Part shown: piece after piece, positions 106 through 4,003 of the stretch
How the letters are laid out: the number at the start of each line of letters is the position of its first letter
How positions within the stretch are numbered: position 1 is the first letter of the stretch
Source of the DNA: a virus
Lineage: Duplodnaviria; Heunggongvirae; Uroviricota; Caudoviricetes
IMG/VR virus record: IMGVR_UViG_2711768005_000011
Length of the DNA stretch: 4,346 nt
Strand: one strand, 5' to 3'
Notes under the pieces: generated by a model
What the model saw: the letters and a program-made list of their open reading frames with translations, nothing else
Databases searched by the model: none
Told to the model about the DNA's origin: nothing
Program-made: the position numbers and the translations under genes

Positions 106-394
106 ATTTGCGCTGGGAAGTGGTGCGCAAGTTGCGTCTAGTGGCGATATTTATGGTTCAGTGTGGGAAAACAACTGGTTAAGCACATGGCTGCATAATC
201 ATGTCGTTCGGGATATTCGTCTTGGCAGCATTGAATATAAAAACGTATGGCGCGACTACGGCTTTGGCGATGCGTCAGGTTATGTTTTAACAGCCGCAAT
301 TAACAGCAATGCGGATGATATTGTCGACACTGTTGCCAGAAGGCCAATTCAGAAATTGATTGGGGGAATATGGTACAACGTGGGGAGTGTTTAA
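106..394 (+). pseudogene. Tail-fibre distal (C-terminal) cassette fragment with no start of its own
   Basis: Track ORF 80..394 ends ...[18 protein letters not shown]. This C-terminus matches that of the minus-strand cassette ([18 protein letters not shown]). TAA at 392..394 sits 1 nt before the tfa ATG at 396. Upstream, the same frame hits TAG at 14..16 and TGA at 5..7, and 17..105 appears to be IS-derived, so no constant N-terminal part is attached. GTG at 80 has its SD-like GGAAGGAG abutting it, so it is an unlikely real start. Confidence 0.6.
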
Positions 395-395
395 G

Positions 396-923
396 ATGAT
401 GCACCTGAAAAATATTAAGGCCGGGAATCCGAAAACACCGGAACAATACCAGCTAACTAAAAAAGCGGGCGTGGTATGGCTCTTTTGCGAAGATGGCAAA
501 AACTGGTATGAGGAACAAAAGAATTTTCAGCCAGACACCATAAAAATTGCTTACGATGAGAACAACATCATCGTTGCTGTCAGTAAAGACGTTTCAACTA
601 TTAATCCTGAAGGGCTAAGCATAGTTGAAGTTCCTGATATTACGGCAAATCGTCACGCAGACAATAACGGAAAATGGATGTTTCTGGATGGTAAAGTAGT
701 AAAGAGGGAATATACAGAACAGGAACTGCAACAACAGGCCGAATCACAAAAGGCCGCATTGCTTTCCGAAGCTGAATCAGTCATCCAGCCGCTGGAACGA
801 GCTGTCAGGCTGAATATGGCAACAGACGAGGAACGCACACGACTGGAAGCATGGGAACGCTACAGTGTTCTGGTCAGCCGTGTGGATACGGCAAATCCTG
901 AATGGCCACAAAAGCCTGAATAA
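396..923 (+). CDS. Tail-fibre assembly protein (Mu U / e14 Tfa-type chaperone), intact, 175 aa
   Basis: ATG at 396 with GGGGAG at 382..387. Protein [22 protein letters not shown] ... [25 protein letters not shown]. Translationally coupled to the preceding fibre cassette. About two-thirds of the protein is closely similar to the convergent paralogue at 952..1485. Confidence 0.85.
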
Positions 924-928
924 AAATT

Positions 929-948
929 AAGGCCCGATAGCGGGCCTT
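929..948. terminator. Bidirectional hairpin terminator between the convergent tfa genes
   Basis: AAGGCCCG (929..936) pairs perfectly with CGGGCCTT (941..948) around a 4-nt loop ATAG. It is flanked by TAAAAATT on one side, which gives a U-run for the minus-strand transcript. It lies exactly between the stop codons at 921..923 and 952..954. Confidence 0.5.
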
Positions 949-951
949 CTC

Positions 952-1485
952 TCATTCTGGTTGTTCGGGAAACGTTACTGGCAGGCTGGAGGTGTCTGTG
1001 GATTCAACCTTCTGCGCATAGAGCATCCACTCGGTTAATTTTTGTTTATTCTCATCGGAAATGATGCCCAGCTGTAGCTGAGAGTCCCACAGCTGGGTTT
1101 TATCCCTGACGAGCTGCAGCAGGCTCTGCTTTTCATTTTCCGCTTGTTGCCTTTGCTCTTCCTCGGTATAAGTTCGCTTTATCACCGCACCATCTTTGAA
1201 CATCCAGTTGCCCGAAATATCAGCCCGGCGATTTGCTGTAATATCAGGCAACTCAACGACACTTAAACCTTCTGGATTAATTGCTGATACATCCTTGTCT
1301 ATAGCAATAATTATTCCCTCAACTGTGTAAGCCAGTTTTATTGTATCCTCCTGAAAGTTTTTTAATTCCTCATGCCAATTTTTTCCATCTTCGGACCATA
1401 ACCAGATAACATCAAAATTCTTTGTTAGCTGGTATTGTTCAACGGTTTTTGGATTACCTGCGACAATGTTTTTTAAATGCTGCAT
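952..1485 (-). CDS. Tail-fibre assembly protein (Tfa/U' paralogue), intact, 177 aa
   Basis: Track [25 protein letters not shown] ... [30 protein letters not shown] at 1485..1483 lies 2 nt after the TAA (1490..1488) that ends the minus-strand fibre cassette. The N-terminal two-thirds is closely similar to the + strand Tfa. Confidence 0.85.
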
Positions 1486-1487
1486 GA

Positions 1488-1786: not shown

Positions 1787-2982
1787 GGAAGGTGCGAACA
1801 AGTTCCTGATATGAGATCATCATATTCATCCGGAGCGCATCCCAGAGGGACATCATGAGCCATCAACTCACCTTCGCCGATAGTGAATTCAGCACTAAGC
1901 GCCGTCAGACCCGAAAAGAGATTTTCCTCTCCCGCATGGAGCAGATTCTGCCATGGCAGAATATGACCGCTGTCATCGAGCCGTTTTATCCCAAGGCGGG
2001 CAATGGCCGACGGCCCTATCCGCTGGAGACCATGCTGCGTATTCACTGCATGCAGCATTGGTACAACCTGAGCGACGGTGCCATGGAAGATGCCCTGTAC
2101 GAAATCGCCTCCATGCGCCTGTTTGCCCGATTATCCCTGGATAGCGCCCTGCCGGATCGCACCACCATCATGAATTTCCGCCACCTGCTCGAGCAGCATC
2201 AACTGGCCCGTCAATTGTTCAAGACCATCAATCGCTGGCTGGCCGAAGCAGGCGTCATGATGACCCAGGGCACTTTGGTGGATGCCACCATCATTGAGGC
2301 ACCCAGCTCTACCAAGAACAAAGAGCAGCAACGCGATCCGGAGATGCATCAGACCAAGAAAGGCAATCAGTGGCACTTTGGCATGAAGGCCCACATTGGT
2401 GTCGATGCCAAGAGTGGCCTGACCCACAGCCTGGTCACCACCGCGGCCAACGAGCATGACCTCAATCAGCTGGGTAATCTGCTTCATGGAGAGGAGCAAT
2501 TTGTCTCAGCCGATGCCGGCTACCAAGGAGCGCCACAGCGCGAGGAGCTGGCCGAGGTGGATGTGGACTGGCTGATCGCCGAGCGCCCCGGCAAGGTAAA
2601 AACCTTGAAGCAGAATCCGCGCAAGAACAAAACGGCCATCAACATCGAATACATGAAAGCCAGCATCCGTGCCAGGGTGGAGCACCCGTTTCGCATCATC
2701 AAGCGGCAGTTCGGCTTCGTGAAAGCCAGATACAAGGGGCTGCTGAAAAACGATAACCAACTGGCGATGTTATTCACCCTGGCCAACCTGTTTCGGGTGG
2801 ACCAAATGATACGTCAGTGGGAGAGATCTCAGTAAAAACCGGAAATAACGCCAGAAATGGTGGAAAAAATAGCCTAAATAGGCTGATTCGATGTGTTTAC
2901 GGGAAAAAAATCGGCCCAGATCCGCGAAATTTTAATCAGCGAGTCAGCTTGGGAAGAAATGACCTGCTTATTCGCACCTTCC
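1787..2982 (+). mobile_element. IS5 insertion sequence, complete copy (~1.2 kb)
   Basis: Terminal inverted repeats GGAAGGTGCGAACAAG (1787..1802) and CTTATTCGCACCTTCC (2967..2982, 15/16 match as reverse complement). Flanked by TTAG direct repeats. Encodes a 326-aa InsH-type transposase. Confidence 0.9.
1855..2835 (+). CDS. insH: IS5 transposase InsH (DDE transposase, IS5 family), intact, 326 aa
   Basis: Track [39 protein letters not shown] ... [14 protein letters not shown] is near-identical over its full length to the E. coli IS5 transposase as I recall it. It lies inside an element with IS5 inverted repeats. Confidence 0.95.
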
Positions 2983-2986
2983 TTAG
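2983..2986. repeat. IS5 target-site duplication, right copy (TTAG)
   Basis: TTAG immediately right of the IS5 right inverted repeat; matches 1783..1786. Confidence 0.85.
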
Positions 2987-3614
2987 CATAAACATCCAGA
3001 TTACCATCGCCTTTTTGTTTAAAGCCCGTGTCATTATCACCCAATACAATCGAATTACCGCCAAGAGCACTGGATGTTCCGATACCCAGTGCACCATTCA
3101 GTTGACCACCAGATAACGGCAGTGCACCAACATCTCCTGCTGAAGGTTTTCTGGTGGTGTAAAATTCGGACCAGTCGGCTTCAAAACCATAACCATCACG
3201 GGCTGAACGATAAAAAATACCGCCATTTTTATAATTAATCCGAAACTGAGCTGCAGGACAACTTCCTTCTCCCATATAAAAATGAATAATTAACGTTGAT
3301 GCACCACTAATAGTTGCGTTATAGGCTCCGCTACTCCAGTTCCATCCAACTGCTTTATCATTCGCAACGGTGCTTCCTGTTTTCCCTAAGGCAAACGCAC
3401 CAACATGACTTGCTTTTAATGTGATATCGGAGGAACCATCAAAAGCCACATTGCTTATTTTCCTGGCAGTTTTTAATTTTGCAGCTGTAGAAGCATTGCC
3501 GGATAGTTCACCAGAAAGGCCACCGCTGAATGTTTGTCGATTAGTCCAGGTATTCGCTGTACTGAGTAACGGTATTTTCTCCCCGCTTGTGCCGAGTTCT
3601 CGTAAACCGAGGTT
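2983..3614 (-). pseudogene. Side tail-fibre alternative cassette, N-terminal portion of the variable region (from the crossover site to the IS5 junction)
   Basis: Minus-strand frame opens inside the crossover site (in-frame TAA at 3617..3615) and reads NLGLRELGTSGEKIPLLSTANTWTNRQTFSGG ... FDGSSDITLKAS ... GDGNLDVYA up to the IS5 junction. Track ORF 2874..3449 is the lower part of this frame; its last ~37 codons are IS5 sequence. It resembles lambdoid side tail-fibre (Stf) C-terminal regions as I recall them. Confidence 0.75.
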
Positions 3615-3622
3615 TTAGATAA
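3597..3622. other. Gin/Pin/Cin/Hin-family recombination crossover site (gix/pix-like), right boundary of the invertible segment
   Basis: TTCTCGTAAACC GA GGTTTTAGATAA is a 26-bp imperfect palindrome with the AAACC-NN-GGTTT core characteristic of serine-invertase crossover sites. It lies ~55 bp upstream of the invertase start, and the minus-strand fibre cassette frame begins in its inner half. Confidence 0.8.
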
Positions 3623-3676
3623 TGGCGGTTTCTGGCCTGCATGGCATGATTTGTGCTTTTGGACGGGAGATTCAGC

Positions 3677-3916
3677 GTGCTGATTGGCTATGTAAGGGTA
3701 TCAACAAATGACCAGAATACAGACCTGCAACGAAACGCTCTTGTTTGTGCAGGATATGAACAAATATTTGAAGATAAATTAAGCGGAACAAGGACAGGCC
3801 GACCTGGATTAAAACGTGCTTTAAAGCGCCTTCAAAAAGGTGACGCACTGGTTGTCTGAAAACTGGACTGACTGGGGCACTGTATGCGGCATCTTGTCGT
3901 GCTGGTGGTGGAAGCC
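3677..3916 (+). pseudogene. pin: Serine DNA invertase (Pin/Gin/Cin/Hin family), N-terminal ~60 codons intact then disrupted by stops
   Basis: GTG at 3677 with GGGAGA at 3663..3668. Reads VLIGYVRVSTNDQNTDLQRNALVCAGYEQIFEDKLSGTRTGRPGLKRALKRLQKGDALVV, a recognisable invertase N-terminus with the catalytic-Ser region. Then TGA at 3857..3859 where W is expected, KLD, TGA at 3869..3871 where R is expected, and LGHCMRHLVVLV. A full-length invertase would be ~190 aa. The ATG at 3653 used by the ORF track has no SD and is probably not the start. Confidence 0.8.
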
Positions 3917-4003
3917 TAGAAAAAGTATCGGGTGTTGCTGAACCGTGTTGATACATCAACTGCACCTGATATTGAGTGGCCTACGAACCCTGTCAGGGAG
4001 TAA
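3917..4003 (+). pseudogene. Remnant of the 3' end of a tail-fibre assembly (tfa) gene, in frame with the invertase fragment
   Basis: Same frame as the pin fragment reads EA, TAG (3917..3919), then KKYRVLLNRVDTSTAPDIEWPTNPVRE and TAA (4001..4003). This parallels the C-terminus of the intact Tfa in this window ([25 protein letters not shown]), with the conserved Trp codon replaced by TAG. Confidence 0.5.

Follow-up and report, generated by a model that had tools for sequence, protein, structure and literature searches.

The stretch of DNA analysed here (4,346 bp, hereafter the window; IMG/VR record IMGVR_UViG_2711768005_000011) carries part of a tail fibre module in which two fibre cassettes, each with an assembly gene, face one another next to a crossover site and an invertase gene. 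We consider it very probable that the window holds a far-decayed host-range switch, of the Mu G / Shigella B type, that belongs to a lambdoid cryptic prophage lying beside trpA in Shigella sonnei. Its features, including the insertion sequences (IS) and open reading frames (ORFs), are as follows.

1-105, minus strand: leftmost part of an IS600 copy (family IS3), whose terminal inverted repeat extends to 105 and whose orfA begins near 41 and is read leftwards.
106-108, unstranded: 3-bp target-site duplication of IS600, ATT (AAT on the other strand), from comparison of relatives L013 and L005.
106-394, plus strand: what is left of the plus Stf cassette at its 3' end, namely the final 95 codons and stop of a variable part of 297 codons; it is collinear with the L005 Stf at the C-terminus.
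396-923, plus strand: tfa, the assembly protein gene of the plus cassette, homologous to Mu U; intact, 175 amino acids (Pfam Caudo_TAP, E = 7.9e-37).
929-948, unstranded: GC-rich, terminator-like hairpin between the convergent tfa genes, found by terminator scan (8-pair stem with 6 GC pairs, then a T-run).
952-1485, minus strand: tfa', the assembly protein gene of the minus cassette, homologous to Mu U'; intact, 177 amino acids (Caudo_TAP, E = 4.8e-34).
1488-3596, minus strand: the minus cassette in its whole span, read leftwards and split by an IS insertion.
1488-1637, minus strand: the distal 49 codons and stop of the minus cassette, beyond an amber codon; in frame once the IS is removed, and a 48-amino-acid ORF in relatives.
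1638-1640, minus strand: amber codon TAG (ancestrally CAG, Gln), the sole internal stop in the frame with the IS removed.
1641-1786, minus strand: the minus cassette between the amber codon and the insertion point of ISKpn26, recognized by frame restoration and 100% identity to relatives.
1787-2982, plus strand: ISKpn26, an IS5-family element of 1,196 bp whose ends are exact; its TTAG duplication lies at 1783-1786 and 2983-2986.
1855-2835, plus strand: ISKpn26 transposase ORF, intact, 326 amino acids (Pfam DDE_Tnp_1 and DUF772).
2987-3596, minus strand: proximal part of the minus Stf cassette, in the silent position adjoining pin' (Pfam gp37_C, gp37_C-like, E = 4.2e-08).
3597-3622, plus strand: Din-family crossover site, bixR-like, 26 bp, TTCTCGTAAACC GA GGTTTTAGATAA; its right half and GA core are those of published bixR.
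3677-3878, plus strand: pin', a dead serine invertase gene of the gin/pinB type with a GTG start at 3677 and 60 codons, from alignment to the intact pin of L003.
3899-4003, plus strand: orphan 3' fragment of a tfa gene joined downstream of pin'; annotated in E. coli L002 as 'tail fiber assembly protein, incomplete, missing N-terminus'.
4058-4346, minus strand: 3' part of a class I S-adenosylmethionine-dependent methyltransferase gene, neighbouring prophage cargo outside the switch; the equivalent gene is annotated in L001 and L002.

The window is the whole of contig CWVK01000234.1 (4,346 bp), in reverse complement, from the short-read draft assembly GCA_001256455.1, and its junction-specific protein is CSI05200.1, 'bacteriophage tail protein [Shigella sonnei]'. 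Both of its ends are sequences that recur elsewhere: the left end is IS600, and the right end belongs to the methyltransferase module. Using the exact tfa' protein, ten chromosomal loci (L004 to L013) were retrieved as relatives; outside one insertion they are 99.7–100% identical to the window, and L011 (CP026802.1) is S. sonnei ATCC 29930. The initial annotation, made from the sequence alone, had supposed a Shigella-like genome, and both the contig and this relative bear it out. It had also recommended a search of the surroundings for other prophage genes: in all ten relatives the module stands at the end of a lambdoid prophage beside trpA, with genes for the tape measure, L, I, J, lom and stf around it. 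Two E. coli prophages were compared as well, one adjoining potB (L001) and one at ompW/trp (L002). No place in the E. coli RefSeq complete genomes covered at least 80% of the window, so its source is not one of those genomes, and the IS600/cassette junction had no match in a scan of genome contigs, a collection in which Shigella may lack species representatives of its own. Among the active phages that have this module and whose invertase is intact are Xuanwuvirus P884B11, Citrobacter phage Shae_phiSM, P88, D108 and Mu.

The undamaged fibre layout is found in L005, where a 918 amino acid Stf is followed by tfa, tfa', a silent minus cassette, the crossover site and pin'. The last 297 residues of this Stf are the plus cassette, and its constant part is a 621-residue lambdoid N-terminus (Pfam phage_tail_N). 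In L011 and L012 the proximal minus-cassette sequence is fused to the constant part, giving an 875 amino acid protein. The fusion junctions read ...AAVIEYLGL/QETV... in the 918-residue and ...AAVIEYLGL/RELG... in the 875-residue protein. Among the relatives, then, alternative cassettes, each with its assembly gene, join one constant part in frame; in the window both cassettes are broken. The invertible-segment architecture first proposed (cassette and tfa, tfa' and cassette, site, invertase) is displayed by L005 and, in inverted form, by L011 and L012. The two tfa ORFs and the transposase ORF had been described as intact, and rightly so: both assembly proteins match Caudo_TAP over profile positions 2-131 of 131, and the transposase is full length at 326 residues. 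The exact tfa' protein is indexed in 4,765 blocks of the collection.

The segment is bounded by a pair of inverted 26-bp sites of the dix consensus with a 2-bp core. In the table of Din-family sites bixL is TTCCTGTAAACC GA GGTATTCGATAA and bixR is TTCCTGTAAACC GA GGTTTTAGATAA (PMC3241671 Table 3), bixL in one piece being TTCCTGTAAACCGAGGTATTCGATAA; the bix sites belong to the Shigella B segment-pinB (GenBank D00660), listed under S. sonnei (PMC3241671). The window site differs from bixR by two changes in the inner half. The second site, TTCCTGTAAACC GA GGTATTCGATAA, lies inside stf at the junction of the constant and variable parts in L005 and equals bixL exactly; the partner site was found in stf of L005, L010 and L013. 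In E. coli L002 both bix sites are exact. The two sites together form the only terminal inverted repeat of the segment (30 nt, 83% complementarity, 2,890 nt apart). For the window, the left site lies outside, IS600 cutting within the variable cassette.

The invertase had been described as truncated by stops. Two TGA codons are indeed present, at 3857-3859 (Trp61) and 3869-3871 (Arg65), but the gene has also suffered a 3' deletion, with homology to intact pin ending after about 3878, and 3899-4003 is a fragment of a tfa gene, not of the invertase. The product retains the catalytic-serine motif (YVRVSTNDQ); its Pfam Resolvase match extends over profile positions 2-69 of 145 only. Of the catalytic domain and C-terminal helix-turn-helix that make up a functional serine invertase, the residues beyond 60 and HTH_7 are absent. 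The locus is a defective member of the Din family which depends on an enzyme supplied in trans. E. coli L001 and L002 share these stops and this deletion junction (99.3–99.4% identity, gap-free), which makes pin' the oldest lesion of the module. Contigs of E. coli and S. sonnei that encode the 60-residue product number at least 999.

In the Hin system the enhancer spans 65 bp and lies approximately 100 bp from a hix site (PMC3798978). Judged by position and homology, a Fis-dependent equivalent probably lies at about 3710-3775, in the part of pin' that has been kept; the stretch around this putative enhancer is 92–93% identical to gin and to intact pin. In a further Pin homologue, from S. flexneri (P0079, 198 amino acids), the conserved motif that begins WKLDRLGRSMKHL is replaced by a scrambled sequence, WKLIASGKHETSDFSRRELRERG, which suggests compensating frameshifts and a defective invertase. 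It resembles the defective pinF of S. flexneri that Tominaga reportedly described in 1991.

The minus cassette bears the second lesion, the amber codon at 1638-1640, which the initial annotation had noted. At this position the window and L004 to L013 have TAG and the paralogous cassettes CAA; the codon is CAG in E. coli L001, whose identity to the window over this region is 98%. All ten S. sonnei loci carry the amber codon, whichever way the segment is oriented, and E. coli L001 lacks it. The amber-free fibre segment of L001 has the orientation opposite to that of the window.

The plus cassette is cut by IS600. Within the window the evidence is 105 bp, which are 100% identical to the full 1,264-bp element of L004, L006 to L009 and L013. 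An IS600 is expected to have TG...CA ends, a 3-bp duplication, and orfA and orfB with the domains HTH_Tnp_1 and rve; the full element, the AAT duplication and these domains were read in L013 and other relatives. Plasmid copies of IS600 carry the annotation 'IS3-like element IS600 family transposase'. The insertion in L013 reads GCGCAAAT[IS600]AATCCCCC, and the uninterrupted sequence of L005 is GCGCAAATCCCCC. An IS3-like element had been said to part the plus cassette from its constant region; the element is there, but the cut falls inside the variable cassette and not at the constant part, so that the first 202 variable codons are severed from the tip. The same position is occupied in six relatives (L004, L006 to L009 and L013) and empty in four (L005 and L010 to L012), and the ORF across the IS600 junction (80-394, 104 amino acids) is on 585 S. 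sonnei contigs, compared with at least 1000 for the amber-bearing ORF of the minus cassette, which places the insertion in a subset of S. sonnei.

In L013 the insertion is a simple one, with the remainder of stf and the left crossover site lying beyond the IS. Beyond IS600 in L004, L006, L007 and L009 are genes of the lysis region, and in L008 genes of the early region in reversed order; neither stf nor J was found beyond IS600 in these five of the six IS600-bearing relatives shown. L004 and L006 to L009 have therefore lost from this place, by deletion or relocation, the left site, the tail genes and the constant part of the fibre. In L004, L006, L007 and L009 (11381-17330) a lysis/nanS-like region is bracketed by two IS600 copies, and the head-tail region from the lysis genes to the plus-cassette remnant is wholly gone. 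The altered region past the first IS600 of L008 (11381-20270) suggests an inversion between IS600 copies.

The fourth lesion, in the minus cassette, is an insertion of the IS5 family, as the initial annotation had it, although the element is ISKpn26 and not IS5 proper. An ISKpn26 is expected to be 1,196 bp long, with IS5-type terminal repeats, a 4-bp duplication and a DDE transposase; the insertion has this length, the TTAG duplication and the DDE_Tnp_1 match. A Salmonella plasmid carries a copy annotated under that name to which the identity is 100%, and to many others so named it is 99.7–99.8%. IS5 proper was rejected because identity to E. coli IS5 is only 91.5%. When ISKpn26 and one TTAG are deleted the minus cassette becomes one continuous frame. 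None of the ten relatives has the insertion, and no contig but this one carries the ORF across its junction. ISKpn26 is probably single-copy in this genome, since a short-read contig assembles through it. This, together with its identity to plasmid-borne copies, suggests that it hopped recently from a plasmid to the chromosome; the plasmid may since have been lost.

That the lesions are artefacts of assembly or sequencing is conceivable for a 4.3-kb short-read draft contig whose two ends are recurrent sequence, and the more so for an ISKpn26 insertion unique to it. The initial annotation had named homologous loci as the means of exposing such errors. IS600, the amber codon and the pin' lesions recur, identical, in several complete genomes. 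The ISKpn26 copy is complete, its ends are exact, it stands between TTAG repeats, and taking it out brings back the frame, a combination that a chimeric join would not give. We regard an artefact as very improbable.

The four lesions that had been counted from the sequence are all present, and their distributions among the relatives are nested. They are therefore independent events, as had been claimed, and a stepwise decay is supported. In the intact state a serine invertase would cut the central GA of both 26-bp inverted sites and flip the 2.9-kb segment, assisted by Fis at an enhancer that lies 5' within the invertase gene, so that the constant N-terminal part of Stf would run on in frame into one tip or the other. 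In the proposed order of decay, the two TGA codons and the 3' deletion would have killed the invertase first, at a time when the module had yet to spread among the prophages of E. coli and Shigella. A CAG to TAG change in the ancestor of S. sonnei would then have stripped the last 49 residues from the minus tip. IS600 would next have entered the plus tip 95 codons from its end; in most descendants the fibre and tail genes upstream, along with the left crossover site, would afterwards have been lost or moved elsewhere in association with IS600. Lastly, ISKpn26 would have entered the minus tip, in this isolate only. From the first step up to the third or later, an invertase supplied in trans still flipped the segment.

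With the plus tip cut by IS600 and the minus tip bearing both the amber codon and ISKpn26, neither orientation encodes a complete fibre in this isolate, whatever sequence follows past the end of the contig. The loss of the invertase did not of itself freeze the switch, called 'fossilised' at first, since relatives inverted afterwards.

'Stepwise domestication or decay' had been offered as the cause. The nested lesions speak for stepwise decay, and there is no evidence for domestication over plain decay. Domestication would mean that the tfa genes and cassette fragments are retained for a host function, for example a block to adsorption like that of e14 StfE2. Both tfa ORFs are intact, and in thousands of genomes, and in K-12 the PinQ-driven inversion of e14 yields an anti-T2 protein (PMC12529663). 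But relatives which are 99.7–100% identical have had little time for neutral decay, so intact ORFs are no sign of selection among them, and the cassette ORFs have been progressively destroyed rather than kept. We think domestication improbable, and prefer plain stepwise decay of the switch.

Decay of the invertase gene did not bring inversion to a halt. When L011 and L012 were compared with L005, the 2.9-kb segment was found to be inverted exactly at the 26-bp sites, between flanks of 99.7–99.99% identity and with the same pin' and amber codon. The sites of L005 (9064-9089 and 11980-12005) are TTCTCG..GA..TTTTAGATAA and TTCCTG..GA..TATTCGATAA; those of L011 (9064-9089 and 11980-12005) are TTCTCG..GA..TATTCGATAA and TTCCTG..GA..TTTTAGATAA, the reciprocal recombinants. 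The joint of L012 also maps to the window-type site (3597-3622) with its half-sites exchanged. Both orientations, with exchange at the core dinucleotide, thus exist among the relatives (L005 versus L011 and L012). Such an exchange of half-sites at the GA core is the mark left by a serine invertase that cuts at a 2-bp core, and not by homologous recombination. RecA-mediated inversion between long inverted repeats was considered separately and rejected, the repeat being 30 nt and the joint lying between differing half-site positions.

ORFs specific to one orientation or the other served as markers in a larger number of contigs. By these markers both orientations are common in S. sonnei. For the window orientation the 203-residue amber-bearing ORF was counted on at least 1000 contigs, strain Ss046 among them; the inverted orientation is marked by a 280-residue ORF on 374 contigs and by the 875-residue fusion on 72. 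For a locus carrying IS600 in the inverted orientation a 191-residue ORF is predicted (MTGELKIG...GGFEVYWQ; from L013, 11381-13201), and this is EIQ52650.1 (P0198) of S. sonnei 4822-66. By parsimony, the two orientations and EIQ52650.1 call for at least two inversions after the loss of the invertase, and on these sequences the segment has probably flipped at least twice since that gene died.

Since the adjacent invertase is a 60-codon stub in every case, the inversion was catalysed in trans. Flipping in trans has precedents. Kutsukake et al. reportedly showed in 2006 that a second invertase acts on the Salmonella H segment. PinQ flips the e14 P segment in trans, the product in K-12 being an anti-T2 protein (PMC12529663). 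A search with intact Pin yielded as a candidate the Gin-like protein of an SfMu-like prophage, present in some assemblies labelled S. sonnei. The other candidates are widespread plasmid-borne Din invertases, none of them from S. sonnei among the 60 matches listed. In the SfMu-like prophages L015 to L018 (invertase at 6001-6573), the fibre-side Caudo_TAP gene is on the minus strand in L015 and L017 and on the plus strand in L016 and L018; the segment of this prophage appears to be present in both orientations among assemblies.

Such mobility raises the question of whether the switch still works here, an invertase in trans flipping the segment so that at least one orientation gives a usable fibre or tailocin tip. 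In its favour, inversion did take place among the relatives once the invertase had gone, the window keeps an intact right crossover site and the region of the probable enhancer, and in L013 IS600 sits within a segment that retains both sites. Against this, IS600 severs the plus tip from its first 202 variable codons and the minus tip bears an amber codon and ISKpn26, while five of the six IS600-bearing relatives are without stf or J past the IS. A working switch in this isolate is extremely improbable.

A decayed switch, the reading preferred here, leaves room for a more tentative suggestion, namely that the module is an orphan cis-element, still flipped by resident or visiting Din invertases, whose sites and enhancer stub have been kept other than by accident, its fibre cassettes remaining a phase-variable locus under control in trans. 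The suggestion comes from the conservation of the pin' stub in E. coli prophages at several sites and from the two or more flips suggested in S. sonnei. It is possible, though we hold it to be rather unlikely.

Some points weigh against the account as a whole. The window stops within IS600, a multicopy element, so the survival of the left site and the constant part of stf is not visible in this genome. The second inversion, in strain 4822-66, is read at the level of ORFs, and the search for a trans-acting enzyme gave no full-length invertase shown to coexist with the locus in an orientation-variant S. sonnei. The ISKpn26 insertion comes from one short-read contig, with no second genome as a cross-check.

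To the right of the switch, the tfa fragment (3899-4003) is followed by a small ORF of 45 residues and by the methyltransferase gene, the product of which is 222 residues long in L004 to L013, with matches to Methyltransf_12/25. Past this gene there is an inverted copy of the tfa 3' fragment. The methyltransferase gene is thereby flanked by inverted tfa 3' fragments (window 3909-4023 and L005 7614-7728) which are 90% identical to one another; the same bracketing is found in E. coli L001 and L002. The arrangement resembles what is left of a further fibre or inversion module, or of one into which a cargo gene was inserted. The whole block of dead invertase, tfa fragment and methyltransferase (99.3–99.4%) ends lambdoid prophages at different chromosomal sites in L001 and L002.

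The value of the locus is mainly for annotation: it is a clean and datable case of stepwise prophage decay in S. sonnei, told by four nested lesions. The wider point is that a fibre segment kept flipping past the death of its own invertase, which fits control across prophages, as by PinQ on e14. Orientation should not be taken as fixed where the neighbouring invertase is a pseudogene.

The segment had at first been assigned to a 'Mu G / e14 P' type; the first half of this stands, widened to Mu G / Shigella B, and the second does not. With the Mu G-Gin system (and that of D108) the locus shares the same order and orientation of S-variable, U, U', S'-variable, gix and gin. Its tfa is identical to U at 144 of 175 amino acids (82%) and its tfa' to U' at 150 of 177 (85%); pin' is identical to Gin at 57 of 60 residues (95%), with 92.5% nucleotide identity to gin. 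The GA core of gix is shared, the window site differing at 3 of 26 positions. Unlike Mu, the fibre tips of the window type are only some 30–45% identical to S and S', the constant part is not that of Mu S, and the module is decayed and housed in a lambdoid prophage.

The e14 P-PinE system of E. coli K-12 is alike in its architecture (stfP-tfaP, tfaE-stfE', pix, pinE), in belonging to a cryptic lambdoid prophage and in being flipped in trans by PinQ. However, the cassettes are unrelated at the nucleotide level, the 5' region of pin is only 74% identical in alignment, and pix has an AA core and differs from the window site at 6–7 of 26 positions. What is shared comes down to the architecture and a 74%-identical pin stub, and e14 P-pinE was rejected as the nearest relative.

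The Shigella B segment-pinB (D00660) resembles the locus in its crossover sites, the left site of L005 being bixL and the window site bixR but for two bases of the inner half; this likeness is drawn from the published crossover-site table. The two differ in that pinB of D00660 works and the window gene is dead, and in the inner half-site (TTCTCG versus TTCCTG). Tominaga, Ikemizu and Enomoto reportedly described B in 1991 as a G-like segment on a constant region unlike Mu S, which would fit a lambdoid constant part of Stf. As to the process, the locus is like other Shigella prophages undergoing IS-driven pseudogenisation in its IS600 and IS1 insertions and in the loss or rearrangement of structural genes past IS600; it departs from them in the private ISKpn26 that matches plasmid-borne copies, and is otherwise in no way unusual. 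The locus belongs to the Mu G / Shigella B-pinB family, which is a known system, and what it has undergone, the IS-driven decay of Shigella prophages, is a known process.

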